This document shows positions 12,113 through 45,741 of a stretch of DNA of 64,000 nucleotides, piece by piece. The stretch comes from Naegleria gruberi (taxonomy: Eukaryota), in assembly GCA_000004985.1 (NCBI GenBank), contig GG738860.1; one strand, 5' to 3'. The translations under genes and the position numbers were made by a program. How positions within the stretch are numbered: position 1 is the stretch's first letter; every line of letters starts with the position of its first letter. Below the pieces are notes generated by a model. That model was not told the DNA's origin. It did no database searches and saw nothing but the letters and a program-made list of their open reading frames with translations.

Positions 12113-13696
12113 TTACCATTCATCATCTGAATCAGTATCAGAATCCTCTTCGTCATGGATACCAGTGTTAGAGAACTTTTTCATGAGATATGACTTGAAA
12201 CCTTCCTTTTCATTTTCTGTAAAATCAGTTACAGGTGGAGGTGTTGGATTCTTCAAATTGTCCTTAGAGAAAGTCTTGATTTCAGAAAGGAAGTCAGCAG
12301 GCTTTGATGGAAGAGGTGGCTTTGAGACTGGAGGGGAGGTTGGAGTGGCCTTTGGTTTGACCTCAACCTTAATTGGACCTCCTCCCATTGGTGGTGGTGG
12401 TGGAATAGCTCCAACAGGAGGTGGTGGTGGAATAGATCCTCCCATTGGGGGTGGTGGTGGTACAGCAAAACTTCCTCCTCCCATAGGTGGTGGTGGTGGT
12501 GGAATAGATCCCATTGAAACTGGTGGTGGAGGTGGAATACTACCTGCTCCTCCATCATAGTCATCTGAAACATATGAAGTCATTGGTGGAGGTGGTGGAA
12601 CTGATCCTCCCATTGGTGGAGGTGGAGGAACAGATCCCATAGATACAGGCATAGGTGGAGGTGGAGGAACACCACTGGATGGTGAAGAAACTCCAAAAGG
12701 TGGTGGAGGAGGTGGAACTCTTCCTGAAGATGCATCACTAGAGACTGTTCTAATCTCATCAACAATTTGATTGTCATCTTCATGTGCCTTTTGTCTTTGT
12801 TTGGCAACTTTCTTTTCATACTTGTGCATGAGTTTTTGGAGACGTTCTTGAGTCTTTGGATCATTAGCTTCAACACCCATACCTCCCAAAACGTCCAAGT
12901 ATTCAGTTGGAAGACCGCTAGCTTCAAATTGGCCAGTTTCATGATTGATACCAACGTGAGCAGTGTTTTGGAAATTCTTTACAGAGCCCATTCTAAAGTT
13001 TGATCTTGAAGGTCTATTGTCAACTGGTTCTTCGACTGGTTTGACTTCTTCCTTCTTCAAGAACTTATCCTTGACACCTCTAAAGAAACCAAAGACACCA
13101 CCTGCTGCCTTTTCTTCCTTCTTTGGTACAGGACTACTTGGAGAAGATGTTTGAGGGAGTGGATTCTTTGGCTTGTCATTGGATGGCTTACTGATTGATT
13201 CAGGAAGTGGTGGTGGATTACTTGTTGCATTTGATGATACACTAGTTGGTGGAGAAGCAGAGACAACATTAGAGAGACGGTTGTTAACAAAGCTGCTAAA
13301 CTTTGAAGCAGCAGTCTTACTATTCAAGGCAACATTGATACCAACAATTCTATCATCGCTTTCAAAGGAAATAAAATTGTCATTCAATTGTTCAAATTGG
13401 AATTGTTCATAACATTCATGAGACCAAGTAACTTGATTGGTTTCAACATTGATTAGTTTCAAACAAAAGACATTGTTCATCAAATCCTTTCCGAAATAAA
13501 GGGCTCCCCAAATACCAGTATAAGACCATTCTTCTTCACCTTGCATACTTTCATAGATTGAAACAACAGCGCTTTGTTCAACACTCTTTTAAAAATATTA
13601 AGCGAATGATAATTTTATAAATCAACCTACCAAACCCTTAGTGGCAGTGAGAACAACACTAACGTCCAAAGGATCATATAATTCCTTATTGCTCAT
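12113..13696 (-). CDS. WASP-family actin nucleation-promoting factor (WH1-CRIB-polyPro-WH2-acidic), 2 exons
   Basis: Exon 1 is about 13631-13696 ('[22 protein letters not shown]'), followed by a GTAGGT donor and a 45-nt intron. Exon 2 is 12113-13585. It has a WH1/EVH1 N-terminus. It has a CRIB motif ('[25 protein letters not shown]'). There are repeated 'GGGG[S/I]IPPPPP' poly-proline units. There is a WH2-like '[16 protein letters not shown]'. The acidic tail ends '...DSDDEW', the conserved Arp2/3-binding Trp. Confidence 0.85.
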
Positions 13697-14085: not shown

Positions 14086-15549
14086 ATGAAACGATATCCA
14101 ACAAGAAGAGCATCACAATTAGCAAATGAAGCCTTGGAAATTGATAAGACAGATGATGAAGGTTTGTTTTTTCATCAATTAGGAAATTAAATTGAAACTC
14201 TAATAGATTATATTGACGAGGAAGCAGCTTCATCTAGTGATTCCTTTGATGATGAGGAAACTCTTGAAGCTGACTATGAAAGTGATTCAGATTCACAGAA
14301 AGAAAAACCATCATCTAAACGTAAGTCACTCTGTCAAAATATCAATCAATATTAATTTCATTCGTTTACCTTATTAACAACAGGTTCTCAAATATCAAAA
14401 CCTGCTAGACATGTATTAATGTCATGGTTGGAGGAACACTTTGAGCATCCCTATCCTGATGATAACCAAAAAGAAGAATTGATGAAAAAGACCGGTCTCA
14501 CCATTAATCAAATTAATATTTGGTTTGTAAATTCAAGAATGAGAGTGTGGAAGCCTAGGCATCACGATTCACAAATTACCAAGACTGAACCAAATTCACC
14601 AAATGGAAATTCTGATGGTTCAGGAAGTAAGCCAAGACAAGAGAAGAAAATAGACATGTTGAATGATGAATTGAAATCATCACTTGCAGCTCGAATTAAT
14701 CCAAACAATGCCAATGTTACCAGGACAAATATTGTGGGAAGTTTGCCTAATGGTCTACCAACTCCATCCACAGTCATCTGTAGAGGAAACTTACCTAAAG
14801 AAGCTGTTGATTCATTGCTCAAGTGGTTATTCGATAACTTTAGTCATCCATATCCTTCAGATGCAGAGAAAGATGTATTGGCTGAAGAAACAAATCTTAC
14901 CTTAACACAAGTCAACAATTGGTTCATCAATGCAAGAAGGAGAATATGGAAACCAATTCTCCAAAAAATCAAATCAAAGGGAATGGATAAAGATGAACTC
15001 CTTTCTCAAGGAAAACTATCAGAAGTTGCCAAATCATTCTATAAGGACCAGAAAATTGGGGAAGAGGAACCAACAAAGAGGAAATCTAAAAGCTCCAAAG
15101 GAGGTTACAGCTCAGATCATGAAGAATCCACACCTAAAAAGCAAAAGAGGGACAACTCTCTCCTCATACCTCAAGACCTGATGACCCATACAGAGCCAAC
15201 CATTACAAGAGAATCAACGATCAAAACTAGACCAAAAATTGAAAATAACAAATTAACTCATAGAGAGCTATTCATTGATCAATACAGACTCTCAATGGAG
15301 AATCAAAAGCTTGAGGAAGATATTCATCAAGTCTATGACAGGTATGCCTCAGTTTTGGAAAATATCAGTGAAAAGAATGTGAAACTTCTCTCCCACATTA
15401 CCCTCCTCGAACAAAAGCAACAACAAATAAGATTGAATAATGAACTCTTGAAGAAAGAGGTTGATTTATTGAGAAGTAGTAAGGTGGTGAATTCTAATCC
15501 TTTCAACGTGGGTTCATTCCTCGTGGAAGAATTAGGATCTTCAATGTAA
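14086..15549 (+). CDS. TALE-class homeobox transcription factor with two homeodomains, 3 exons
   Basis: The exons are about 14086-14161, 14207-14320 and 14384-15549. The donors are GTTTGT and GTAAGT, and the boundaries are consistent with phase 1. Homeodomain 1 is '...HFEHPYPDDNQKEELMKKTGLTINQINIWFVNSRMRVWKP'. Homeodomain 2 is '...FSHPYPSDAEKDVLAEETNLTLTQVNNWFINARRRIWKP'. Both carry the three-residue TALE insertion (PYP) and the WF.N.R recognition helix. The C-terminus is coiled-coil-like. Confidence 0.85.
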
Positions 15550-19983: not shown

Positions 19984-21318
19984 ATGACCCAAAACTCATC
20001 AACACCAACATCACCAATTCTCGGTTCGTCATCGTTTGATGACAACAAATCGGAGGCAAGTTCCACACCTTATGAACCATCCCCAGAGTTATTTAAAAAG
20101 CCAACAAAAACAATCATACAAACATCTGATGATGATTATGACTTTGAAGAAGAGAACGATAATAATAAGAAAGAAGAATCTTCTGATGACGATTCAGCTA
20201 ACAAATACGAAGAAGAAAGAAAAAAGAAAATAGAAAGAAACAAAATGTTACTTGCTAATTTAGGCCTTGGTAATGGTTTATTACCAAAGAATAATAACTC
20301 TACCACAACAAAGAAATCAAGAAGGTCAACCGGAAGTGAAAGTGGTGAACCAACAGAAGTCAGAAGATCTTCCAGACTTTCGTCTAAACCAAAACCAGTC
20401 TACAACTATAGAGAACTTGAAAAGGTAGAAAAAGAATCTAGAAGAGTCATTGCACAAGAGAAAAAGCTAAAGAAGGAAGAACAAAGATTAAAATACTTTT
20501 CAAAGAGAACACTGAGGAAACATCGTGGTGAAGAGGAAGAAAGTGCTGAAGAAACTGATGAAGACACTTACGTTTCCGAATATAATGAAAATAATAAGAG
20601 AAGAAGCTCAAGAAATAAGAAGAAGATTGATTATGCAGGTTTGGAACATGGAGACTCAGAAAGTGAAGGTGAATTTGAAGAATTTGACCAGGTGACAGTA
20701 GTAGTGGAAGAATCTCCAAAAAAGAAAAAGAAAGTCACCAAAAAGAGTACGATTGCTTCTCCAGTATGCTCTTTTTCAAATTTTACAATATCAGATGAAC
20801 ATGCTGTTAGCTACACTGAAATTGGTGGAACAGTTGCTGAGACACCAAGCGATGAGAATATCACTCATGTCGTTACAAAGGTCTACAAGAGAACTCTCAA
20901 ACTCATGTGTGGAATAATTAGAGGAGCTTACATAGTGTCGGAAGATTGGCTCCTGGATTCTTTAGAAAATGGATATTTTGTTGATGAGAAACCATATCTC
21001 ATTAAGGCTGATGGTGTGAGTCTATTACAAGCAAGAAAACGTGCCTTAGCCCAACCAATATTTGCAGATCTCAAATTCTTTATTTGTGATGATGTACAAG
21101 CTCGTGATATTGTAACACAAATCATTGAAACAGGTTCAGGGTCGATTATCACTGCCATTGATGAAATGTTGGAAGAGGACTATGATTTTGAGAATTGCTA
21201 TATTATATACGAAGAGGAAGAGACAAAAGACAAGTATCCAACACTACCAAACGAAGTTTTCAGGACAAAGGAATTTATCTTCACAGCTGCTGTGTCCCAA
21301 AAAATAGAAGATGTGTAG
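19984..21318 (+). CDS. BRCT-domain protein (Lys/Glu/Ser-rich N-terminus, C-terminal BRCT)
   Basis: The C-terminal 110 aa ('ITHVVTKVYKRTLKLMCGIIRGAYIVSEDWLLDSLENGYFVDEKPY...FFICD') fit the BRCT fold signature, including the conserved Trp. The upstream part is a charged low-complexity region. Confidence 0.6.
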   Translation: MTQNSSTPTSPILGSSSFDDNKSEASSTPYEPSPELFKKPTKTIIQTSDDDYDFEEENDNNKKEESSDDDSANKYEEERKKKIERNKMLLANLGLGNGLLPKNNNSTTTKKSRRSTGSESGEPTEVRRSSRLSSKPKPVYNYRELEKVEKESRRVIAQEKKLKKEEQRLKYFSKRTLRKHRGEEEESAEETDEDTYVSEYNENNKRRSSRNKKKIDYAGLEHGDSESEGEFEEFDQVTVVVEESPKKKKKVTKKSTIASPVCSFSNFTISDEHAVSYTEIGGTVAETPSDENITHVVTKVYKRTLKLMCGIIRGAYIVSEDWLLDSLENGYFVDEKPYLIKADGVSLLQARKRALAQPIFADLKFFICDDVQARDIVTQIIETGSGSIITAIDEMLEEDYDFENCYIIYEEEETKDKYPTLPNEVFRTKEFIFTAAVSQKIEDV

Positions 21319-21354: not shown

Positions 21355-23484
21355 ATGTCTCGTTTATTTCCTCTGGTTTTGTTATTGGTTTTAGCCATTC
21401 AGCAGATTTATTGCTTTAGAATCATACCTCTCACCACTACATCACCATGTACTGAAATGCAAAAGGAAAGAGTCATTCTCTCCACAGATAGCATGATAGC
21501 ATTTTGTGTTAACAAACAAGGCTCTGAGTGTTCCACTATTAAATACCTGAATGGAAGAAAAGTGATGGTACACAGAGACCTCTCCGATTTGTTTCAATTT
21601 CAACTCGATAGGTACAATGAAATTCATCAGGAAACAATTATACCAATAGTGACACTTGTAACCTCAATCTATGTTGATGCCTTCTTTGGTCATCCAGCAC
21701 TTAATTTTGACAGTTTTGTTGTTCCTTTAAGTACACTCCAAGATGTTCTTCTTCGAATGCCCTCTTTGGAGAATAGTGAAAGACTACTTTTGTGGAGTGA
21801 CCTTAATTTCATTGATGAAATGAGCATGCCTATTCAAGTGGGCACTCTCAATGAAACTAGCAAGTTTGCACTAATTGAAGACACAATTTCTACTGAGTAT
21901 TTTGGGCCTCTTCTTGAAAAATCAAAAAGAAAAACCACAATTGGATATAGAACCTTCAATGAGTTGATACTTTCCAATAGATTTGGACTTGGAAAATTAG
22001 ATTTACTGAAACAAACATTTATCAAAAGATTATTCAATGGTTGTGATTTGAAAATTGAGGAAGTGGAAACGAGCAATTTCACAATTATCAAACAATTTGA
22101 ATCTGTGAAGAATCTCAGTATGAACAATTTAATTGACTTGAATGTATTGTATTGCTTTGAAAAGTCAACTCTTTCATTCTATTCATGCAATGACGGTGTA
22201 CCAGGTACAGTGATTGCCTATGAAATTGAGAAACTTCTCCAGATTACATTTGGATGTCTTCAGCTGTTACTATTGGCAGCAACATTTAACACCAAGTCAA
22301 TCAAGCGCAGACTTTTAGTACCTTATTTGATTCCTCTTTGTTTGATTGTGGCTAGTATATTCTTCTCGATTTTCATGCAACAAGTTTCCAATACATTGAG
22401 GTCTATAGTAACCATTGGAATTACTGCTTTTGTAATTGGGATTTATGGTTCCACTCTTGTTAGATTCTACTATTTAAGGTATTTGTATCGATTTCTTAGC
22501 AATTCAACTGATAAGCAAGTGAAAATTCACAGAATTTTGAGTTCTGAATGGTTTGGGGTTTTGGCAACATTAGTATGCGCCATTCTTCATGTACTCTTTT
22601 GGTTGGCAATCCTCATACCCTATGCAGTTGTTAATGTCTACGAAAGCAATGTATTATTTGGAGTGAATGTCATTTACCTACTGCAAGGAATCATTGGATG
22701 CATTTTGGGTATTGTTTTCATGAGTATTGATATTTTTAACAATCGAAAACTAATTAAGGAAAAGGGACTATTACACTTTTTCACATTTGAAGATCCTTAC
22801 TTCTTGAGATTGGACATCATTAGTTTTTTCATTATCCTTACAAGCCTAATTTTGATTATAATTTTCAACTTGATAGGTCAGGAATGGGCAGATTATTGTT
22901 TGGGCATATGTTCATTCATATCTTTTATTTTCATTTACTGTCTTGGAGGAATGACAGCCATCCTGATTGAATGCTGGAAATTCCTCAAAAGAAAGAGGCG
23001 GCCAATAGAATCTACCTCTCAAAAAATTCAAACAGATATTGAACTACATTTAAAGGATCAACACTTTGTTGAACTATTTAAAAGTTTCTGTGAAAAGGAA
23101 TTTTCACTGGAGAACTTTCTCCTTTACGAACACATTTCTCAACTAAGGACGAGTACTCTCTCTTCTTCAGATAATAGAAGCACCAATTCCATGAACTCAT
23201 CCTCACTAGATCGTTACATCTCAGCGGAGCAATTCTATCAGTTGTGGACTTTATTCTTCAAGCCATTAGCCAAGTATGAAGTTAATCTTCCAGGAAAAGT
23301 CAAGAAACAAATCGAAATAATTTACCACTCAAGAGATGGAACCCCACTAGAAACATTTGAGAATATCGTCCTGACCGAATTGTTATTCAATCTCAAAGAT
23401 ACCTATAGTCGACTTGTAGAGACGAGTGAATTTTCGAGATGGCAATTGGTAAATACCATTCAAACTCAACAGAATATCAAATAA
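21355..23484 (+). CDS. Seven-transmembrane receptor-like protein with a C-terminal RGS domain (7TM-RGS)
   Basis: Signal peptide 'MSRLFPLVLLLVLAIQQIYC', then an ectodomain of about 280 aa. Seven hydrophobic helices follow (for example 'LIPLCLIVASIFFSIFM', 'FGVLATLVCAILHVLFWLAILIPY', 'CLGICSFISFIFIYCLGGMTAILIECW'). The C-terminal RGS-box signature is 'FVELFKSFCEKEFSLENFLLYEHISQL'. Confidence 0.7.
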   Translation: MSRLFPLVLLLVLAIQQIYCFRIIPLTTTSPCTEMQKERVILSTDSMIAFCVNKQGSECSTIKYLNGRKVMVHRDLSDLFQFQLDRYNEIHQETIIPIVTLVTSIYVDAFFGHPALNFDSFVVPLSTLQDVLLRMPSLENSERLLLWSDLNFIDEMSMPIQVGTLNETSKFALIEDTISTEYFGPLLEKSKRKTTIGYRTFNELILSNRFGLGKLDLLKQTFIKRLFNGCDLKIEEVETSNFTIIKQFESVKNLSMNNLIDLNVLYCFEKSTLSFYSCNDGVPGTVIAYEIEKLLQITFGCLQLLLLAATFNTKSIKRRLLVPYLIPLCLIVASIFFSIFMQQVSNTLRSIVTIGITAFVIGIYGSTLVRFYYLRYLYRFLSNSTDKQVKIHRILSSEWFGVLATLVCAILHVLFWLAILIPYAVVNVYESNVLFGVNVIYLLQGIIGCILGIVFMSIDIFNNRKLIKEKGLLHFFTFEDPYFLRLDIISFFIILTSLILIIIFNLIGQEWADYCLGICSFISFIFIYCLGGMTAILIECWKFLKRKRRPIESTSQKIQTDIELHLKDQHFVELFKSFCEKEFSLENFLLYEHISQLRTSTLSSSDNRSTNSMNSSSLDRYISAEQFYQLWTLFFKPLAKYEVNLPGKVKKQIEIIYHSRDGTPLETFENIVLTELLFNLKDTYSRLVETSEFSRWQLVNTIQTQQNIK

Positions 23485-23572: not shown

Positions 23573-24700
23573 ATGAGCGATAAAGAATCCACACCAAGTC
23601 CATCACCATTATCATCAAATAATTCTCCACCTGTTGCCACAACAACTACCACAACAACAACATTACCAAGTGGTCCTAAACAAGATAATACCAAGAGTTT
23701 TCTTGTCCAATCATCACCACTTGTTTCCTTCATATCGGGAGCAGTTTATGGATGTACCTCCATTGCTGTAGGACAACCTCTCGATACAATTAAAACACTC
23801 ATGCAATCTAGTGCTACTATTAATCAAAATAATGCAACAACATTGGGTGTGATTAAATCAATTTATAAGAAGAATGGTTTTATGGGATTTTATCGTGGAT
23901 CTCTTCCACCTTTGTTTACTGCTTCAGTGTTGAGAAGTTTGCAATTTGGTGGATATGCAATGGCATTACAATATATTATGGAAAATAATGTGTTTTCTGA
24001 TAAGGATTTCAGAAAGGAAAATTTACATGTTTTGGAGGAGAAACCATTTAGTTTGCATCCTGAAATGTTTGCTGCTGGCTGTTTTGGAGGTGCTGCTAGA
24101 GCCATTGTTGGTATGTTTCAATTTTCATGGTCATGTGTTTATTAATAATATTCGAATTATTTCCAAAACATTTTAATAGAAACCCCTGTCGAATATATGA
24201 AAGTCAGATTCCAAACTGAACAACCTTGGAAATTTACTGAATTATATCGTGGATTTACTGCAACACTGTTACGTAACATGTTCCTTTTGGGCAGTTTCTT
24301 TGTTTTTGTTGACTTTTTCACTCAAGAATATAGAAATTTACAAGTGAGACAACATTTGAAATCTCTTGCATCTGATGAAGAAAGAGAAAAGAGCAGAGGT
24401 CAATATTTCGATTTTGCAAAATTGAGTCCATTCTTTACAGGTGGTGTTTGTGCAACTTTGGCTTGGTGGTTAGTTTTCCCATTGGATGTTATTAAGAGTC
24501 AAATTCAAGCTATGAAACCTGATGAACAATTGGGCCTTATGCAAAGAATGAAACATGTTTCAAACACTTTGGGCTTCAGAGGATTTTTCAGAGGAATTGT
24601 ACCTGCTAGTGCTAGATCCATGTTGGCAAATGGTGTTTCAATGATTGCCTTTGCTTATGTTTCATCTCATCTCATTCAAAAATTGGAAAAGAAGGAATAA
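23573..24700 (+). CDS. Mitochondrial carrier family (SLC25) protein, 2 exons
   Basis: The exons are about 23573-24110 and 24180-24700, with a GTATGT donor, a ttttaatag acceptor and consistent phase 1. It contains carrier motifs 'GQPLDTIKTLMQ' and 'FPLDVIKSQIQ'. The exon junction falls in 'AIVG|ETPVEYMKVRFQ'. Confidence 0.8.
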
Positions 24701-24737: not shown

Positions 24738-27700
24738 TTACTGTTTGAGTTTCTTTTGAGCTGGCTGTTGTTCAAGTGTTTGCTGACAAGTACTGGAAGA
24801 ACGTTTTGTAATCTTTTGCCATTTTCTTGAAACATGATCCATGCAAAAGTATATTGTTACAATTTCATCATTGAGCTCTTCTGAGTGAATTACATATTGT
24901 TCCTGGCAGTTTCGATTTTCTCCCATGAAAAATGTAAATATCTGTTTTCTTGTTTCCTGTGTGATTTGATTGCATCCCCTTAATAAATTATCCAGATAGT
25001 TGTTGACACGAGAATAATTTTCAGTATAATCATTTGTTAATACCAATTGAGGAGGTTGATAGGTTGAAAGTGAGGCTTGTTGTAAAGTTATTTGTTGCTG
25101 AAGTGAGTTAAGATATTTCAATACCTTTTGAACGTGAGATAAATTCTTCTTTAGTTCATTTTGAGGAGAGCTAATCTTGGTGATGGTTATTTTTCTATAT
25201 TCCTTTCTAATATCAAGGAAAGAAGGGTTACAGAGCTTTTCAATATTCGAAATAACATGATCTCTCTGACCTTGTGTGTTTCTCATTTCAAAAGTTACTC
25301 TATTGGGATCTAACAAGTAGGTTCTCACAGACTCACAGGTGCTACACGGACTAGAACCGACAAACATTCCAGAATTCCTACAATTTGATTTTAAAGGTTC
25401 TATTTTCCAACTCCATGGCAACTGTTGGATATTTTGAATGTGAGTCGATACTATTCCTAATGCACCAGTTATGAGTAATGATAAAGAAGACCCATTCAAT
25501 AGAGAAGCTCTAAAATTACTAGTTTCCAACCATTTAAGTAGTGGAATGAGCACAGATTCCACTCTATCAAATGTGTCGCATCTATTCAATATACTTGAGA
25601 CTATTATGTTAAAATTATCAGGAATACACTCTCTACAAAACATGTATATAAATGAAATGCACATATTTGATGTTAGCTGTGGTTGAGAGGTAAATTCCAT
25701 CCAAATTGAATTTCTCAAAATATCATATGCATATTTGCATTCCTCATTTGTGAAATTGTTTTCACAATAGGTTGCAATGACCATAGCTTGCTCATAAAAC
25801 TTGTTGGTGAGCTCAGGAAGGCACACTTGCATCTTTTCTTGTAATAATTGCTTATTCACTTTTGAGGAGTTCTCAAAGAATATTCCATAACAATTAGTAA
25901 AACACGAAATATTATCCAATAATGATAGTAAAACATCTTCCAAATGTAGAGTATTGTGCAGTGAACAATAAGGAAGTAATAATTGAAAAACTGTCGCATC
26001 TGCCCTTTTCAAAATTGCTGAAATGGCATTTTCTGTGAATGGCATTTGTCTTTCAATCATGTATCTCAAAATGGTGTGAAGATAAGTATTAGGGAGGTGT
26101 TGAGTGGCCAATCTTTCAAAAATCTTATCAAAGAACTCTTTGATAAAAACATTTCCATTAACATCCTTGGAGAATTCATTGATAACAAACTGAACGTGGT
26201 CTATTCTGTCCTGTATTGTAGACTGGAACGCTTTTTGGACGAACTTTTCAATAAATTGATCCTTCAATTGGTTCATTGGGAAGATTCCAACAATGGCACT
26301 CCAACCAAAATCAGATAAACTTGGATGAGCATCAAGATAACATTTCAAAACCTCATAATTTCGAAGTTGAATTATATTCCTAACCATTAAATCTTCTGAA
26401 AGCTTATTTGCACATTTAGGTATAAATTGCAAAAGTTGAGTGAGTGCATTAGGTTTCAGACTTGTTGCTTCCATAAATAATTGTTGGCAAATGTAATCCA
26501 CATCCTGGGTGTGAGCGTAATTGTTGAAGAGGGATGTAGCAAACCTCCTAGAAACAATAACTATGCATCCGTTTCTATACCACTTATCTAAATTGGTTCC
26601 CTCATTACCTGTGTGCTCAATTCGAGAATTTGCAAAGTGTTGATCCTCGAGTCTTTCGTATGGAATTATATTAGAAAGCATCATATTTGATGGCAAACTG
26701 GAAAATGAAGACCCACTAGTTGTTTTCACATTTTTCAAGTTATATCGAACAGTTGGTTCACATATTAGATCACTTCTGACCTCTATTTCTGTCTCAGAAT
26801 CAGAACCACAATCATCACCATCTCCATAATAATCATAGTGATCTCCATCCAATTGTCCACTAACTTCTTTTTCAAATATTCCAATAAATAAATGGAATAA
26901 TAAATGTTCTTGATTGAGTTCAGATAAGAATGTGTACAGCATTTGATCTTTCCCTTTCAGATTCGAAGCTGATAAACCTTCCATAGTATATTTGTGTTCT
27001 AGTAACCAAACAATGAAGGGAGGTTCGGTTTTTTCCCATCTTTCAGATAGGTTTATGAATGATTTCTCCAATTTACTCCTCATATTAAATGAGGGGATGG
27101 AATCCAAAGCCCCATTATAACAAACATTATAAATTAGACATAATCTGTATCCACTCGAAACTCTATTCACCTTATGTTCACAATCACAGAAAAATCCAGT
27201 GTATGAAACCTTATAACTTGAATTCTTTGAAAAATCATAGATTTTTTCATTCCCAGAATGTTTTACAATTAGCTCTCCACCAGAATACACTGAAGGAAGA
27301 TGAATTACCAAAGTTGCAAACATACCACTCTCCTTCTCTGTATCTCTGTGATAATCAAAGTGTCCATCAGTTTCATAGAGAAGCAGTTTGTAAAGACTAT
27401 GAGTAATTCGTTTGTGTTTTGGAATACCAAGTCCATTTCGTAACTCATTTTCAACAATATTTCCCACAAAACCATTCCATTTAGGATTAGAAATAATGAA
27501 TTGGGATGGCTCAAGTTGCCAACTTTTTCTCACAGTTTCATCAATAAGTGTCAGCTCTCCCTTCCCATAAGGTGCCTTTGATGCCACTGAAATGATGTCT
27601 TGAGCTTGATTTAAATTAGTAATAGGGAGAGAGCAATGTTTCAATTCAACAGTTGCTCCACTTTCATTGGATGGTACACAAATTTGTAATCCAGGAAGTC

Positions 27701-28154
27701 CTGGAATATTCTCAACTTCGCCTCCACATGAAAATTCTCCAACACATACATCTGTTTCTGAGCTAGTCAATAAATCAGCCATTTCCTTTGTTGTTTCTGA
27801 ATATCCAATAACCAACTCATCAGGAAGTATCAATGAGTGGCGTTGATATGGTATCGTGAACATAATTGGACTTGTGGGTTTAGGCCTATGAGAATTATCA
27901 AACACAAATGATGACTCAAAAGATTCAGACATTATATTCGGAAGAGGAAATTCCATTGGTTTGAGGGTAATCAGGTTGAAGGTGTTCGTAGATGATGACC
28001 CCTGACTATTATGACTAATTAAATTGTTCAATAATTGTGATGTTGAGAGAATGTCATTGGTACTACTACCAATAGTACTACTAATACCATCACCAGAATT
28101 AATGGTAGTTATATTAGGAGTAGTGGTATTTCCGAGTAGGTTATTAAATTGCAT
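24738..28154 (-). CDS. Large (1138 aa) protein with a 2OG-Fe(II) oxygenase-like core and an unknown helical C-terminal region
   Basis: Residues around 250-300 are 'LLLYETDGHFDYHRDTEKESGMFATLVIHLPSVYSGGELIV'. This fits the H-x-D...H plus 'GGEL' pattern of prolyl-hydroxylase-type dioxygenases. The remaining roughly 750 aa have no recognisable domain. It is a single exon. Confidence 0.5.
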   Translation of the reverse strand: MQFNNLLGNTTTPNITTINSGDGISSTIGSSTNDILSTSQLLNNLISHNSQGSSSTNTFNLITLKPMEFPLPNIMSESFESSFVFDNSHRPKPTSPIMFTIPYQRHSLILPDELVIGYSETTKEMADLLTSSETDVCVGEFSCGGEVENIPGLPGLQICVPSNESGATVELKHCSLPITNLNQAQDIISVASKAPYGKGELTLIDETVRKSWQLEPSQFIISNPKWNGFVGNIVENELRNGLGIPKHKRITHSLYKLLLYETDGHFDYHRDTEKESGMFATLVIHLPSVYSGGELIVKHSGNEKIYDFSKNSSYKVSYTGFFCDCEHKVNRVSSGYRLCLIYNVCYNGALDSIPSFNMRSKLEKSFINLSERWEKTEPPFIVWLLEHKYTMEGLSASNLKGKDQMLYTFLSELNQEHLLFHLFIGIFEKEVSGQLDGDHYDYYGDGDDCGSDSETEIEVRSDLICEPTVRYNLKNVKTTSGSSFSSLPSNMMLSNIIPYERLEDQHFANSRIEHTGNEGTNLDKWYRNGCIVIVSRRFATSLFNNYAHTQDVDYICQQLFMEATSLKPNALTQLLQFIPKCANKLSEDLMVRNIIQLRNYEVLKCYLDAHPSLSDFGWSAIVGIFPMNQLKDQFIEKFVQKAFQSTIQDRIDHVQFVINEFSKDVNGNVFIKEFFDKIFERLATQHLPNTYLHTILRYMIERQMPFTENAISAILKRADATVFQLLLPYCSLHNTLHLEDVLLSLLDNISCFTNCYGIFFENSSKVNKQLLQEKMQVCLPELTNKFYEQAMVIATYCENNFTNEECKYAYDILRNSIWMEFTSQPQLTSNMCISFIYMFCRECIPDNFNIIVSSILNRCDTFDRVESVLIPLLKWLETSNFRASLLNGSSLSLLITGALGIVSTHIQNIQQLPWSWKIEPLKSNCRNSGMFVGSSPCSTCESVRTYLLDPNRVTFEMRNTQGQRDHVISNIEKLCNPSFLDIRKEYRKITITKISSPQNELKKNLSHVQKVLKYLNSLQQQITLQQASLSTYQPPQLVLTNDYTENYSRVNNYLDNLLRGCNQITQETRKQIFTFFMGENRNCQEQYVIHSEELNDEIVTIYFCMDHVSRKWQKITKRSSSTCQQTLEQQPAQKKLKQ

Positions 28155-29339: not shown

Positions 29340-31556
29340 TTATCTTCTTGGTGTTAAATCACTTAGAGCACGAGCAACAAGTGAATTTCTATTTTTACCA
29401 TAAAGAGGATGGTTTTTCATGAGTAGTAATTGTTCCAAACGTTTCACTATCGTTTCAGCCTCTATGGTTGTCCTAGCTTCATAAAATAGGTTCTCATCAT
29501 CGAATGACAAAACAAAACACTTTGGATTAGTTGAATCACATTCAATTGAACGTAAAGTGGTAATTGGTCTTGTTGGGTGTTTTGTTTTAGATGAATTCAT
29601 CCAACGAGAAGTATTGGCTGGCTTTGAATTATAAATAAATTCTGAATCAAAACTGAGAATTCTCTCTTGTCTGACTCCAAACTTATTTGTCTTGGTAACA
29701 TGGAAAACGTTATCAGTATTATCATAAGTCATGAATGGAAGGGCGTATATTTGTTTTGAAGGTGACCCAATCATATTGGGAGCGGTTGGAGATCCAGATA
29801 TTTCACCTTTAGGTGTTGATTGATCTGTATCAGACTCGTATGCTGCTGTTCTTACAAGAACAACTCTTTCAATCATTGATCCTAAAGAATAAAGTGTCTT
29901 GTCTTTGTAATTTTTGCTAATTTCTTTCAGATTCTTGTCTTTTCCAATAGTATTGATCATGTATTTTTTAGGATCCAAAGAAAAACGTTGACAAAGTACT
30001 TTCTGTAAATCTTTGAGTAATAATTCTGGAGATACTGGAACAAGTTTGAAATAAGTGAGTTGGTAATTTCTGGAATTAATTGGGGATGTGAATGAATTGG
30101 TATTTGGAATGATGGTTGGTGTAGAACATGAATTTTTTGGTGGTGGAAGGAAAACTTGAAGTCTAATATCTTCTAAATTGAATTTTGTAAAAACTTCATC
30201 TCCTCCAAACTTGATATTTAACTCTCTCCTATTTTTAAGATTGGAAGATGAATCATCTTCAGCTCCACTATTTCCACTGGACATTGGTTGAAAATTCCTA
30301 TCAAGTACAAGTGTTAATTTTACATTACCCAACTGTTCAATCATTGTCTTTTCCTTGTTGAGTGGAGGCCAACTTGTATCAGGTTGACCATCTTCTTCTG
30401 CAACTCGTAATTGATAAGCTCTATCGTCAATAGCAATAGGTTCTAGATCAGTTTCTCTTTTATACAGTTCCAGTGCTTTACGAATCAAATCTGTGGCAGT
30501 AAAGTTTAGAGATGTCATTGAACTCACAGTTGGAATGGGCACATTAACTTTGTGAACACCTCCTCGTTTGTGTGGCACAAATGTAGCAATATATCGAACA
30601 GATTGATTTGCTTGTTTAAAATTACTTGAATTATCATGTAAAAGACTACCTCCAATAGCAGGATTTCTTCTTGGTCTCAAATCCATCGACAAGGATGAAT
30701 CTACTGTCGTTTTTGTTGGTATCATCTTGTTAACACCACCAAGTGTAACTTTTTGAAAGATGGAATCTTGTACAGGTGGGTTGACTGGTTGTTGATTTGA
30801 AGAAGTATTTGATTGTTCTACCTGTCTTGTATCTTGCTCGGGTGTTATTGGATTATTTTCCTCTTCACTAACACCATCATCACCTTGATCTCCATTATTT
30901 CTTCTTGGTGTTGTTGTGCCATTGCGAGGAGTTGTTGCTCCTCTTGGTGTTGTTACATTGCCTCGAGGAGTTGTGTTACTTGATGAATTCATTGCTGGCA
31001 TGTTTTGAAGAGGAAGTTGGAGATTAAATTTACCAGGTGATGCAACACCATTCTGTTTTTGTTGTTGTTCTACATGTCTTTTGTGTTCAATAAATAATAA
31101 TTCATAATCTTTTAGATCAAAAGTATCGGGTGGTGTAAATGATGTTGATAATCCTGTATTTCTATTATATCCTCCTTGTTGTTGGGCGCCATATGGATCA
31201 TGATCTGCTCCTGTTGTTGTACTGGAGAAACTTCTTGTTCGAAAGTGTCCAGGATTATTTGAAGATGCTGATCGTTGAATGAGAGGTTGATTGGCTCCAT
31301 TTGTATTGGTTCTTACGAGAGGAAATTGTGCTCCATTTCTTGGTGGTGGTTGAGGAGGTTGAAAAGATGGATTTGTTGTTGTTGATGTAGATTGTATTTT
31401 GAAGGAAGAACTCGTTGATTTTAAAGTACTATTCATCAAACTGTTACCATTACTCACTCCACCCGAAGAGTTATTGTTCAGTAACATTTGATCGTGTATT
31501 CGAGGAAGTGTTGTCCTCTTTGTCTCCTTGAAGTTTGGCTTTTTAAAGTGGAGCAT
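29340..31556 (-). CDS. SIN1/Avo1 homolog (TORC2 subunit) with CRIM, Ras-binding-like and PH-like regions
   Basis: 'YQLRVAEEDGQPDTSWPPLNKEKTMIEQLGNVKLTLVLD' matches the SIN1 CRIM core ('[36 protein letters not shown]'). Downstream there is a ubiquitin-like RBD-type segment. The C-terminal PH-like fold is 'PKCFVLSF..ENLFYEARTTIEAETIVKRLEQLL'. The N-terminus is long and Ser/Thr/Pro-rich. Confidence 0.65.
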   Translation of the reverse strand: MLHFKKPNFKETKRTTLPRIHDQMLLNNNSSGGVSNGNSLMNSTLKSTSSSFKIQSTSTTTNPSFQPPQPPPRNGAQFPLVRTNTNGANQPLIQRSASSNNPGHFRTRSFSSTTTGADHDPYGAQQQGGYNRNTGLSTSFTPPDTFDLKDYELLFIEHKRHVEQQQKQNGVASPGKFNLQLPLQNMPAMNSSSNTTPRGNVTTPRGATTPRNGTTTPRRNNGDQGDDGVSEEENNPITPEQDTRQVEQSNTSSNQQPVNPPVQDSIFQKVTLGGVNKMIPTKTTVDSSLSMDLRPRRNPAIGGSLLHDNSSNFKQANQSVRYIATFVPHKRGGVHKVNVPIPTVSSMTSLNFTATDLIRKALELYKRETDLEPIAIDDRAYQLRVAEEDGQPDTSWPPLNKEKTMIEQLGNVKLTLVLDRNFQPMSSGNSGAEDDSSSNLKNRRELNIKFGGDEVFTKFNLEDIRLQVFLPPPKNSCSTPTIIPNTNSFTSPINSRNYQLTYFKLVPVSPELLLKDLQKVLCQRFSLDPKKYMINTIGKDKNLKEISKNYKDKTLYSLGSMIERVVLVRTAAYESDTDQSTPKGEISGSPTAPNMIGSPSKQIYALPFMTYDNTDNVFHVTKTNKFGVRQERILSFDSEFIYNSKPANTSRWMNSSKTKHPTRPITTLRSIECDSTNPKCFVLSFDDENLFYEARTTIEAETIVKRLEQLLLMKNHPLYGKNRNSLVARALSDLTPRR

Positions 31557-41967: not shown

Positions 41968-43029
41968 TTACAATAATTTCAAATGTTTTGTAACAGTATC
42001 AATTAATTCTACAGGAGCTGGACCAATTCCAAGTACTGTTTTCGATCCAGCTTCAATTTGAGTTCTTCCAGCATCAACAACAAGATAACAATTCAAACGT
42101 TGTTGTAAACATTTTTGAAATAAATTATCCAATTCCTTATCACTATCTGCTTTAAGACAAATCTTAGCTTCAGCTGTTACTTCCCAGTCATGTAAATATT
42201 GTTTCCATTGTTGCATATCTTGGTTGGTGATTTGTGTTGGCTCTGAATTTGATGATGAAAATAATAATTGAGTTTGAGCAAAATAGGAGGTGTTTTCATA
42301 GAGAATATTTCTATAGAGACCGACAGCTGCATGACAACATTGAGCAGCAATCTTTCCTTTACCCATATTCAAATCATTTCTAACAACAAATACCATCTTG
42401 TAAGCCTTTGATGTCGGGAATGATTTCATCAAATATTCTTGATATTTTTGATNNNNNNNNNNNNNNNNNNNNNNNNNNNNNNNNNNNNNNNNNNNNNNNN
42501 NNNNNNNNNNNNNNNNNNNNNNNNNNNNNNNNNNNNNNNNNNNNNNNNNNNNNNNNNNNNNNNNNNNNNNNNNNNNNNNNNNNNNNNNNNNNNNNNNNNN
42601 NNNNNNNNNNNNNNNNNNNNNNNNNNNNNNNNNNNNNNNNNNNNNNNNNNNNNNNNNNNNNNNNNNNNNNNNNNNNNNNNNNNNNNNNNNNNNNNNNNNN
42701 NNNNNNNNNNNNNNNNNNNNNNNNNNNNNNNNNNNNNNNNNNNNNNNNNNNNNNNNNNNNNNNNNNNNNNNNNNNNNNNNNNNNNNNNNNNNNNNNNNNN
42801 NNNNNNNNNNNNNNNNNNNNNNNNNNNNNNNNNNNNNNNNNNNNNNNNNNNNNNNNNNNNNNNNNNNNNNNNNNNNNNNNNNNNNNNNNNNNNNNNNNNN
42901 NNNNNNNNNNNNNNNNNNNNNNNNNNNNNNNNNNNNNNNNNNNTGTGTTCTTGTGATGACATTTTTTAATGAGTTGGAATTATTTTGAAAATAATCACAT
43001 GAGGAATAAATTGCAGAATTGAACATCAA
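41968..43029 (-). CDS. PTRH2: Peptidyl-tRNA hydrolase 2 (PTH2/PTRH2), interrupted by an assembly gap
   Basis: The C-terminal 150 aa are 'KMVFVVRNDLNMGKGKIAAQCCHAAVGLY...GRTQIEAGSKTVLGIGPAPVELIDTVTKHLKLL*', the canonical PTH2 fold and C-terminus. The N-terminal 27 aa are upstream of the gap. The middle is poly-N. Confidence 0.75.
   Translation of the reverse strand: MMFNSAIYSSCDYFQNNSNSLKNVITRTXXXXXXXXXXXXXXXXXXXXXXXXXXXXXXXXXXXXXXXXXXXXXXXXXXXXXXXXXXXXXXXXXXXXXXXXXXXXXXXXXXXXXXXXXXXXXXXXXXXXXXXXXXXXXXXXXXXXXXXXXXXXXXXXXXXXXXXXXXXXXXXXXXXXXXXXXXXXXXXXXXXXXQKYQEYLMKSFPTSKAYKMVFVVRNDLNMGKGKIAAQCCHAAVGLYRNILYENTSYFAQTQLLFSSSNSEPTQITNQDMQQWKQYLHDWEVTAEAKICLKADSDKELDNLFQKCLQQRLNCYLVVDAGRTQIEAGSKTVLGIGPAPVELIDTVTKHLKLL
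42453..42943. other. Assembly gap (about 490 N) inside the PTH2 gene
   Basis: Run of n characters. Confidence 0.99.
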
Positions 43030-43296
43030 TCTCGAGCCAATAAATTCACAAACAATTAAGAACTCTCCAATTAGACTTTAGATAGTTAAGGGATTGTTGA
43101 CGGAAGAGAATTTCATGTTTTATAGTTAGTATTTATAGAAATTAATAACAATAATAATTTGTACTTCACAACAGGAAAGTTGAAGAAACAATAATTTTCA
43201 AGTGGAAACTTTACAATTTCTTTCATCAAGAGGATTATCCAATCAATCAATTATTGAAATAAAAAAAAATTCAAATCACCCAGATCTTCTTTGAAC

Positions 43297-45741
43297 ATGG
43301 CCAGAACCAAGCAAACAGCGAGAAAATCGACGGGTGGCAAAGCTCCAAGAAAACAATTGGCTTACAAAGCTAGAAAAGCAAACAGACCTTTCCCTTCCCG
43401 TTCGTTGGCAGGTCCTTTTTCTGATGAGGAAAAAGCAATTTTTGTGAATGGTTTGAAAAGAGCCTTCGATGGAAGTGAAGAATCATCAAAATTTGATGTA
43501 AATACCTATGAAGGAGCTTCACAATTAGTCAAATTTTGGATTTTCCAAGATCAAAAAAGAAGAAAATTGAAACCAATGGTAGAGGAAGCTAAATGGAATG
43601 GCAGCTTTGAATTGCTTCACAATCTTCCTATGGATATCAAGTATGAAATTATTGATTTTATTCCAACCTTTTCCTTGAGAGATTTTTACAAAATCAAGTT
43701 AGACGAATTCACTGAACAGATGAAGCTGGCACAAGTTGAAGATATTTCTAAAATTGTATGCAAAGGACTGAATTTGTTTGAAACCTTTACAAAGAGATCT
43801 TTTCAAAATTTGTACTATTCAGATCCTCTCTATAGAAACTATTACAAGAAGAGACTAATTAACAGAGAATATGCATTAAGAATGAAACAAAGGATATTGA
43901 AGTTGGATGAGTTTGATATTACAGATATTGATTATGATATTGGTTCTGTAAAGAAAGACAAACTATTGCACTTCTTTTCGTTGGTTAAGGAGATGAATGA
44001 AATTGACACTGTTGACTTTAATGATGTGGTCATTCACAGAAATATTGAAAAAATCAAGTCATTGGTAAATGGAACCACCACAAAAAGAAATGAAGATGAT
44101 TACGAGTCACCTTGTGAAGAACCAATGGATGATACTGATTCAATTAGTAATGAGCCTAATGTAACTGTATCATTTGATGAAATGGAGCTACTTTCTGAGG
44201 AAGAAATGAAAAAGTTAGAATCAAAATCTATTGCCATACTGCAGGAATCAGAAAGAGGATATTATAATACTCGTAATTACAATAAGTTTAACAAGCAAGA
44301 TAGTAAATCTTTTAGAAAGCAAGCGATGTATTCGTATGCTATACCATTGGAACTAATAGGAACTGGTGCTATTCCACAAGAACAAAATTTTACTCGTGCC
44401 TTTTCTCACGAAGAGATTATGGAAAGGCTTAAGGAGTTTATTGGAATTAATTCATCCATTAAGAAACTTTCTGTCAGAGGTCTAGATGTCGGCTTTACAA
44501 ACACTGCCATGGACATCTGTAAAGGAATAACAGATCTTTCAATACTTTTATGTGAGTACGTGGATTATTTTGAGTGCTTTAAAGAAGTCCTACCAAATCT
44601 CAACAAGCTGACTATTAATGGAGTTTCTTCTCATTACTCAATTAGTTTTATGGAAAGCTTTATGATTGAGGAATATATTCAACCTAACTGTGTTGTTGAT
44701 TTAGGGTTTGCTACAGGCACTGACACATATTTCTCGGATTTTTTAAATCGTTATGTTGAAGATCAAAACGGTAACAAGACTCCATTGAAAATTACCTCAA
44801 AACTACTCTCAACTGAAAACGTAACCGAATATGCCGACTTTTTATTGAGGTTTATAGAAGGAGTATCTTTCGGCCAATTGTTTTCTGATTTTGATATGAA
44901 AAAGAAATTGGTAGATTACTTGGTAATTGAAGTTGGCATTCCAATTGAATGGCTTACGCTTACCACAAGTGGAGATACTATAATTACAGAATACTTAGCT
45001 TATCTTTCAAATGTTTATCAAAATGGGGCAATTAATTGTCCAAGCTCTATTATGTTACGAGCAGGCTTGATTCCAAATAATATAGCCAATGAATTGGTTT
45101 TTTCTAAATATGAATGGGATGTTGTTGAGTTATGTTTAGATTATTTAAAAAAGAGAGATGATATTGATGACTTTGTTTTGACCCTTAGAAATTTGCTCGT
45201 TTTCTATGTGTGTGATAGAAGTGATTCTCCACTCTTTGAACTATATTGTTACATTAAGAAGAATATTCCAGAAAGTCAATTCAAAGAAATTTTAAAGCCT
45301 ATCAAATGTATCATTCCAGAAGGCTACAAAGAAAAGAACAATGAAACCTTGCATACAGTTTCTATTCCCATCATTTGCTTCCCATTCTCAAATTACCAAT
45401 TCGCTAAAGCTATCGTGGATGATATGACAGACGAAGATTTGAAATTTGTTAATGAGCTTGGTGACTCATGTCTGCACATTTATTCTAGACATGACCATAG
45501 TATTTGGAGTAGAATAGTTGAAAGAGTACCAGAGGTAGTCAAACTCAGCAACCCTGAGGGAGTAACACCTTTACATATTCATACTACCAATATCCAGTCA
45601 TACATATTTGTATTAGACTTGTTGACAAGATTTGGTGCTGACCCAAATGCAAAAGATATTGAAGGAAGAAAAGCTATTGGTGAATTTTTTATATTTGAGA
45701 ATGGTATTTTGAAAGTTAACAACAGATCAATGGAATATTAG
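43297..45741 (+). CDS. Histone-H3-tail-bearing F-box-like / LRR-like / ankyrin-repeat protein (814 aa)
   Basis: One uninterrupted ORF. Residues 1-22 'MARTKQTARKSTGGKAPRKQLA' are identical to the canonical histone H3 N-terminus, followed by 'YKARKAN' (compare 'TKAARKS'). An F-box-like segment follows ('LHNLPMDIKYEIIDFIPTFSLRDFYKIKL'), then LRR-like middle sequence. The C-terminus has ankyrin repeats ('GVTPLHIHTTNIQSYIFVLDLLTRFGADPNAKDIEGRKAI'). Confidence 0.6.
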   Translation: MARTKQTARKSTGGKAPRKQLAYKARKANRPFPSRSLAGPFSDEEKAIFVNGLKRAFDGSEESSKFDVNTYEGASQLVKFWIFQDQKRRKLKPMVEEAKWNGSFELLHNLPMDIKYEIIDFIPTFSLRDFYKIKLDEFTEQMKLAQVEDISKIVCKGLNLFETFTKRSFQNLYYSDPLYRNYYKKRLINREYALRMKQRILKLDEFDITDIDYDIGSVKKDKLLHFFSLVKEMNEIDTVDFNDVVIHRNIEKIKSLVNGTTTKRNEDDYESPCEEPMDDTDSISNEPNVTVSFDEMELLSEEEMKKLESKSIAILQESERGYYNTRNYNKFNKQDSKSFRKQAMYSYAIPLELIGTGAIPQEQNFTRAFSHEEIMERLKEFIGINSSIKKLSVRGLDVGFTNTAMDICKGITDLSILLCEYVDYFECFKEVLPNLNKLTINGVSSHYSISFMESFMIEEYIQPNCVVDLGFATGTDTYFSDFLNRYVEDQNGNKTPLKITSKLLSTENVTEYADFLLRFIEGVSFGQLFSDFDMKKKLVDYLVIEVGIPIEWLTLTTSGDTIITEYLAYLSNVYQNGAINCPSSIMLRAGLIPNNIANELVFSKYEWDVVELCLDYLKKRDDIDDFVLTLRNLLVFYVCDRSDSPLFELYCYIKKNIPESQFKEILKPIKCIIPEGYKEKNNETLHTVSIPIICFPFSNYQFAKAIVDDMTDEDLKFVNELGDSCLHIYSRHDHSIWSRIVERVPEVVKLSNPEGVTPLHIHTTNIQSYIFVLDLLTRFGADPNAKDIEGRKAIGEFFIFENGILKVNNRSMEY

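Follow-up and report, generated by a model that had tools for sequence, protein, structure and literature searches.

Which kind of receptor is encoded when a large extracellular domain, seven transmembrane (7TM) helices and a C-terminal regulator of G-protein signalling (RGS) domain are joined in one reading frame, and what would such a protein do? The question is raised by a gene at 21355..23484 in a 64,000-nucleotide stretch of Naegleria gruberi DNA (GenBank assembly GCA_000004985.1, contig GG738860.1), referred to here as the window. Profile search and domain order place the product, from N. gruberi, in the heterolobosean (Naegleria/Willaertia) '7TM RGS' family, and we consider it probable that it functions as a ligand-modulated membrane GTPase-activating protein (GAP) of that family. 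Receptor-GAPs invert the logic that textbooks give for G-protein-coupled receptors (GPCRs). The 7TM-RGS arrangement is already known in Naegleria and this receptor is a further member; since its kind has been described there, the novelty is modest. What is new is an ectodomain resembling type II binding proteins, a transmembrane bundle resembling that of class C receptors, the absence of detectable 7TM homology to AtRGS1 and the finding that the existing NCBI gene model is truncated.

Gene model and domain architecture

An earlier note on this DNA, made from the sequence alone, had described a signal peptide, an ectodomain of roughly 280 residues, seven hydrophobic helices and a C-terminal RGS box, and all of these parts are confirmed where that note placed them (Table 1), far beyond chance, the ectodomain being a little shorter at ~260 residues (~23-282).

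Table 1. Features of the receptor gene and of the protein it encodes, with their positions in the window
Feature	Residues	Position	Strand	Basis or remark
N. gruberi 7TM RGS receptor gene, complete single-exon coding sequence	709 aa + stop	21355..23484	+	ATG start; list of open reading frames
Signal peptide	1-22	21355..21420	+	hydrophobic core LFPLVLLLVLAI; outside the NCBI model
Ectodomain	23-282 (~260 aa)	21421..22200	+	predicted divergent type II periplasmic-binding-protein (Venus-flytrap-like) fold
Seven-transmembrane domain	283-548	22201..22998	+	GPCR fold, predicted N-out/C-in
RFYYLRYLY motif, cytoplasmic end of TM3		22462..22488	+	alignment; family consensus RFxYLRNLY
Intracellular loop 3	459-487 (about 27 residues)	22729..22815	+	consensus NRKxIxxKGxxxFLxFDDPFxxRxDL
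RGS domain	566-705	23050..23469	+	Pfam, PDB profile matches, intact G-alpha contacts
Ser/Asn-rich insertion	598-622	23146..23220	+	between RGS helices 4/5; specific to this paralogue

The 2.1-kb frame is uninterrupted and contains no frameshift in the list of open reading frames (ORFs). Residues 47-709 are 100% identical to a 663-aa NCBI 'predicted protein [Naegleria gruberi]', the model of which begins at M47 (21493), omits 46 in-frame upstream codons and therefore lacks the signal peptide. We take M1 (21355) rather than M47 as the true start, because the extra residues are signal-like, as they are in the relatives, and because in-frame stops lie immediately upstream of the ATG at 21355. This ATG is found 36 bp after the stop of a BRCT-domain gene (19984..21318). 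The N-terminus reads MSR, LFPLVLLLVLAI, QQIYC, and its hydropathy, which peaks at 2.0 in a 19-residue window and at 3.24 in a 10-residue window, bears out the signal peptide proposed for the first 22 residues. Similar hydrophobic, signal-like N-termini are found in most full-length relatives and in the paralogue P0002, a protein of 734 aa with 31% identity that is encoded elsewhere in the N. gruberi genome.

At the other end of the protein, the Pfam RGS family (PF00615) matches residues 566-655 at 28.5 bits, above its gathering cut-off of 23.9, so that the RGS box of the earlier note passes the profile check; the corresponding score of P0002 is 17.9 bits, below the cut-off. A profile of the family matches 35 distinct solved RGS domain sequences among the PDB sequences (best E 7e-10). 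Single-sequence searches of the same set found nothing with the full receptor and just marginal matches to RGS10 with the RGS part alone.

The domain was aligned with RGS10, RGS17 and RGS4, the last in a sequence whose key positions agree with the published numbering. In the RGS4-Gi-alpha1 complex, reportedly described by Tesmer et al. 1997, the switch regions of G-alpha are touched by RGS4 residues that all find counterparts here: E83 corresponds to receptor E582, S85 to S584, E87 to E586, N88 to N587, N128 to N644, D163 to D682, S164 to T683 and R167 to R686. The RGS10 and RGS17 alignments agree with this mapping. Across 59 aligned full-length sequences E586 is present in all 59, N587 in 57, N644 in 56, R686 in 55 and D682 in 51, T683 also lying within the range of 51-59, which is the pattern that selection for G-alpha binding would be expected to leave.

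Between these two ends, a Kyte-Doolittle plot gives seven strong hydrophobic segments within residues 293-538, besides the signal peptide. Lysine and arginine are concentrated in the loops at 313-320, 370-402 and 459-485 and in the segment after 539, the alternate loops having neither, and the N-terminus is therefore predicted to lie outside and the C-terminus inside. The AlphaFold2 model, made from an alignment of 90 family sequences (mean predicted local distance difference test score, pLDDT, 88; predicted template modelling score 0.86), likewise shows seven long helices, which span 283-548, and after them a C-terminal domain that is all-helical. Both the seven-helix claim and an orientation compatible with a cytosolic RGS domain are thus upheld. 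Among the 59 sequences scanned there is no match to a Pfam 7TM family, even with the threshold relaxed to E<=10, and the assignment of this part to the GPCRs consequently rests on structure: the 7TM fold superposes on class C transmembrane domains, with a preference over adhesion and class A folds of only about 3 Z units.

Family membership and distribution

The family was delimited with a profile made from the ectodomain and 7TM parts of the receptor and P0002, containing no RGS residues, which was run exhaustively with HMMER against 1.84 billion representative proteins. An exhaustive search was needed, as a word-indexed protein search, whether with the single sequence or with a 90-sequence profile, returned just the receptor and one paralogue. 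At E<=1e-3 it found 90 clusters, of which 66 also passed E<=1e-10; most matches were 600-850 aa long. Although the query was free of RGS residues, about 70 of the 90 clusters bear a C-terminal RGS domain detectable with the RGS region of the receptor. Thirty of the clusters were looked up. Twenty-one of these have named members, all from N. gruberi, N. fowleri, N. lovaniensis or Willaertia magna, and the remaining nine are metagenome or transcriptome sequences; the annotations are merely hypothetical, predicted or 'RGS domain-containing'. Proteins of N. fowleri and N. lovaniensis were reached with E values down to about 1e-42, and the Pfam RGS family is detected in 42 of the 59 full-length relatives at E<=0.01 and in 48 at E<=10.

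The '7TM RGS' family of N. fowleri, comprising 28 proteins, is the subject of a study by Bosch, Jeck and Siderovski (J Biol Chem 2022, PMC9283941). These proteins have the same order of ectodomain, seven transmembrane helices and C-terminal RGS domain as the receptor, their 7TM and RGS parts are homologous to those of the receptor, and the canonical G-alpha-contact residues of the RGS domain are common to both. In that study the isolated RGS domains of Nf 7TM RGS2, 3 and 4 accelerated GTP hydrolysis on Nf G-alpha 2, 3, 5 and 7, a switch-1 Gly-to-Ser mutation in Nf G-alpha 2 and 3 abolished the effect (PMC9283941); two of the substrates, Nf G-alpha 5 and 7, are self-activating. The ectodomains differ: those of Nf 7TM RGS1-4 contain EGF, lectin or GPS elements, whereas that of the receptor's subfamily is type II binding-protein-like. 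The wider background is one of large numbers: RGS proteins number 229 in N. gruberi, 7TM-RGS architectures have been noted in many 'bikonts' (PMC3971589), and N. gruberi has about 44 G-alpha subunits (PMC8584482). Since N. fowleri is a pathogen and has orthologues of the receptor, Naegleria G-protein signalling also represents drug-target space.

The closest N. fowleri relatives, P0041, P0014 and the P0006 cluster (FDP41_009581, 009582 and 008612/009565), appear as short gene models, of which two or more are neighbours, and which correspond to an ectodomain piece of 209 aa, a transmembrane piece of 140 aa and a piece of ~300 aa running from TM5 to the RGS domain. A third N. gruberi paralogue is likewise split in two, as P0213 and P0068 (NAEGRDRAFT_74779/74780). 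Such split models probably represent single genes that were broken up in annotation, and the N. fowleri genes behind them appear to be duplicated. With these models apparently split, and with the NCBI model of the receptor lacking its signal peptide, surveys based on gene models would under-count or mis-describe the subfamily.

A divergent type II binding-protein-like ectodomain

The earlier note found no recognisable family in the ectodomain. As far as Pfam is concerned this holds, but a fold can be recognised by structure comparison, in which the best and most consistent matches are to bacterial type II solute-binding proteins (class F / NMT1-SsuA-like) and to the ligand-binding cores of ionotropic glutamate receptors. 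The best-modelled core spans residues ~37-170. A Willaertia relative, P0007, provides a link at the level of sequence, as its residues 73-145 match the Pfam family NMT1/THI5-like, which belongs to the type II binding proteins, with a score of 22.3 bits, the cut-off being 20.5. This stretch contains motifs of the types 'L-x-G-[KR]-K-V-x-V' and 'G-x(3)-E-x-F-D', and aligns to about residues 45-130 of the receptor; NMT1 matches were obtained for two of the 19 ectodomains scanned. About twenty relatives have this ectodomain, and in them a DCxxGxxxExFD motif is conserved, as are the stalk cysteines, which in the receptor are C267 and C278. It is moderately well supported, on these grounds, that the ectodomain is a divergent and possibly reduced type II solute-binding (flytrap-like) module. 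Compared with the type II solute-binding proteins, the receptor's ectodomain seems to have a shortened first lobe, and its C-terminal half is helical and was modelled with less confidence. A type II periplasmic-binding-protein (PBP)-like ectodomain is not mentioned for the Naegleria 7TM RGS proteins in PMC9283941.

Three NxS/T sequons for N-glycosylation are present in the ectodomain (N166, N241 and N253). The receptor was also considered for a GPS (adhesion-GPCR cleavage) motif ahead of TM1, such as some N. fowleri members have, and the idea was dropped, there being just the two stalk cysteines and no HL-T/S-like site in the poorly modelled residues 268-274. A compact ectodomain of the solute-binding type would place the receptor among the more tractable cases for finding a ligand.

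A probable ligand-modulated GAP and its alternatives

The function that we regard as probable can be set out as a sequence of steps. The signal peptide would direct the ectodomain to the outside of the cell, or to a lumen, and leave the RGS domain in the cytosol, where the conserved contacts and the N. fowleri assays (PMC9283941) suggest that it serves as a GAP for one or more N. gruberi G-alpha subunits. Some of these subunits probably load GTP without a receptor, and the protein described here would keep G-alpha off at the membrane. Its anatomy suggests that the flytrap-like ectodomain binds a small soluble ligand, and anatomy together with the analogy to AtRGS1 suggests that the 7TM bundle relays its occupancy, along with the highly conserved intracellular loops 2 and 3. 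The relay would then alter either the access of the RGS domain to G-alpha or the location of the receptor, such that G-protein signalling is released or strengthened.

The distribution of conserved residues is consistent with such a scheme. Conservation across the family concentrates on the cytoplasmic face of the 7TM domain, where R370, at the cytoplasmic end of TM3, is invariant in all 59 aligned sequences. Intracellular loop 3 is the best-conserved segment of the whole receptor, D480 being invariant and G471, F478, P481 and R485 being kept in at least 90% of the same alignment. Further family motifs are KRRLxxPY at intracellular loop 1/TM2 and GG...E in TM7, and G532, which is invariant in the family, is retained in the receptor. 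Mean identity to the relatives rises from 14-16% in the ectodomain through 25-27% for the 7TM domain overall and 30-32% for the RGS domain to 45-46% in intracellular loop 3. A variable exterior on a constant cytosolic face, with the ectodomain evolving fastest and loop 3 most constrained, is what would be expected of a receptor family in which diversified inputs converge on a common cytosolic output; the common intracellular partner could be G-alpha or the receptor's own RGS domain.

Several observations weigh against a ligand-modulated GAP. Only ~120-150 of 267 ectodomain residues align to PBPs, with Foldseek TM-scores of 0.22-0.32, and the region ~169-191 (full-length numbering) is poorly modelled. 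The receptor's own ectodomain matches no Pfam family, PBP families included, and an ectodomain profile searched against PDB sequences found no PBP and no meaningful match. The RGS domain, for its part, bears an insertion of 25 residues (598-622) that is a gap in the P0002, RGS4 and RGS10 alignments and is modelled with pLDDT 63-77. Finally, by the account of the authors of PMC9283941, the status of the N. fowleri proteins as cell-surface receptors and the effect of a cue on their action as GAPs have yet to be settled.

The same conserved cytoplasmic face could be read as that of a receptor with two functions, in which the 7TM domain is a true GPCR, acting as an exchange factor upon ligand binding, and the tethered RGS domain, as a terminator built into the protein, makes the response sharper or shorter instead of being the primary output. 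The invariant R370 occupies a TM3 position that recalls the DRY arginine of class A receptors, conservation is very strong in intracellular loops 2 and 3, and slow-exchanging, exchange-factor-dependent N. fowleri G-alpha subunits also engage 7TM RGS domains (PMC9283941). Yet the loops could equally dock the receptor's own RGS domain, class-specific G-protein-coupling motifs are not recognisable and no Pfam GPCR family is matched, and exchange-factor activity is not known for any 7TM-RGS protein. We think a dual function unlikely.

A different alternative is that the 7TM domain and ectodomain do no more than place the RGS domain on a particular membrane or contact site. In that case the ectodomain, as a degenerate PBP that has lost ligand binding, would have a structural or adhesive role, and the GAP would not be ligand-regulated. 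That the PBP-like fold is partial and divergent, with its low TM-scores and its poorly modelled stretch, that ectodomain identity is so low, and that the ectodomains of other family members are of an adhesion type and contain EGF, lectin and GPS elements (PMC9283941) would all be in keeping with a constitutive anchor. Against it stand the DCxxGxxxExFD motif and the stalk cysteines, which persist across the ectodomain subfamily, and the large radiation that the ectodomains have undergone while the 7TM-RGS chassis stayed constant, which is better explained by sensory diversification; we regard an anchor as very unlikely.

That the gene is an annotation artefact, or a decaying and non-functional duplicate among 229 RGS genes, is hardly credible, for although the family is very large and lineage-specific and its Pfam RGS scores are modest (28.5 bits for the receptor and 17.9, below the cut-off, for P0002), the 2.1-kb frame is intact without a frameshift, the family-invariant R370, D480, G532 and E586 and the catalytic-interface residues are all retained, and the AlphaFold2 model is confident over its whole length (pLDDT 88).

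Comparison with plant, fungal and class C receptors

The earlier note had compared the protein with AtRGS1 and with fungal class VI GPCRs. The likeness in arrangement stands, since AtRGS1 and the plant RGS1 proteins likewise have seven transmembrane helices followed by a cytosolic RGS domain, but the closest relatives are the Naegleria/Willaertia 7TM RGS proteins. Twenty plant RGS1 sequences were aligned and compared with the Naegleria family domain by domain, profile against profile, with hhalign. The RGS domains are homologous (probability 95.4%, E 1.7e-8), whereas the 7TM profiles have no detectable homology (probability 0.8%), and no plant protein is found among the named matches of the RGS-free profile search (21 named of the 30 looked up). 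The plant proteins also differ in having almost no N-terminal ectodomain and no signal peptide, TM1 starting within ~15 residues of the N-terminus. With homologous RGS domains on 7TM domains that are not detectably so, the likeness to AtRGS1 is one of architecture, and probably of logic, rather than of membership; the logic proposed for AtRGS1, that of a receptor-GAP on a G-alpha able to self-activate, is alike, and by analogy the receptor probably follows it. As judged from these profiles, the plant and Naegleria fusions were either assembled independently or have diverged beyond detection.

The fungal class VI GPCRs (GprK type) and the 7TM-RGS proteins of Trichomonas share the arrangement of a 7TM domain with a C-terminal RGS domain (PMC3971589, PMC9283941). 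No fungal or Trichomonas protein occurs among the named clusters of the 30 of 90 looked up; no direct sequence comparison with them was made.

The class C GPCRs are resembled in three respects, by the flytrap-type ectodomain, by the cysteine-containing stalk and by the class C-like bundle. The flytraps of these receptors (mGlu, GABA-B, TAS1R, CaSR, GPR156/158) have the type I fold, while the ectodomain of the receptor resembles type II binding proteins (amino-acid, sulfonate, NMT1 type), and the receptor has its RGS domain fused in cis, unlike class C GPCRs. Neither Pfam 7tm_3 (PF00003) nor ANF_receptor has a sequence match in the receptor or in the 59 sequences scanned. Because class C flytraps are of type I, because there is no 7tm_3 or ANF_receptor signal and because the structural preference for class C amounts to just ~3 Z units, the likeness is a resemblance and not membership. 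Several plant RGS1 proteins (P0111, P0114, P0131, P0142 and others) have a precomputed Pfam 7tm_3 match on their 7TM part. The plant and the Naegleria 7TM-RGS bundles therefore both lean towards class C, without a detectable sequence relation to one another.

We tentatively raise the possibility, which we hold to be rather less than even, that the subfamily represents the class C design in a protist version of separate origin, in which a type II flytrap of the NMT1/amino-acid-binding type is set on a class C-like bundle and the output goes to a fused RGS domain rather than to the activation of G proteins. If this were so, the receptor would be a small-molecule sensor, for a nutrient or metabolite, that signals by switching a GAP on and off, and the coupling of flytraps to 7TM domains would either long predate the animals or have had more than one origin.

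The locus and other features of the window

The 64-kb window contains no second copy or tandem paralogue of the receptor gene, and no cluster of G-protein signalling genes is found among its annotated neighbours. These are unrelated genes of housekeeping or signalling, for a BRCT protein, a mitochondrial carrier, a 2OG-oxygenase-like protein, Sin1, a WASP-like protein, a TALE homeobox protein, an importin-beta, MetRS, MMS19, a GBP-like GTPase and others, and the context of the locus contributes nothing to the interpretation of the receptor.

The mitochondrial carrier gene (23573-24700, + strand) begins 88 bp downstream of the receptor gene and consists of ORFs at 23573..24145 and 24197..24700, which are probably joined across an intron of ~50 bp. 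It is followed at 24738-28154 (- strand) by an ORF of 1138 aa, whose single weak match is to the 2OG-Fe(II) oxygenase family near residues 257-342 (21.8 bits against a cut-off of 27). The G+C content falls to 24% at 42001-44000, compared with about 34% elsewhere, in a region in which no tandem repeats were found; the dip overlaps the 5' half of a gene for a PTH2 peptidyl-tRNA hydrolase with a long N-terminal extension, and also the start of an 816-aa ORF that has no Pfam match. A WASP-like protein with WH1 and p21-Rho-binding domains is encoded at 12113-13546 (- strand) and its gene adjoins that of the TALE-class homeobox protein at 14419-15549 (+ strand), which has two homeodomain matches (Homeobox_KN, 136.6 bits). 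The Sin1-like protein at 29340-31556 (- strand), with CRIM and Sin1 PH domains near their Pfam thresholds, is a candidate subunit of a Naegleria TORC2. At 60700-63399 (- strand) lies the gene for a large GTPase of 899 aa resembling guanylate-binding proteins (GBPs), which has the N- and C-terminal GBP domains and ~300 extra residues at its N-terminus.

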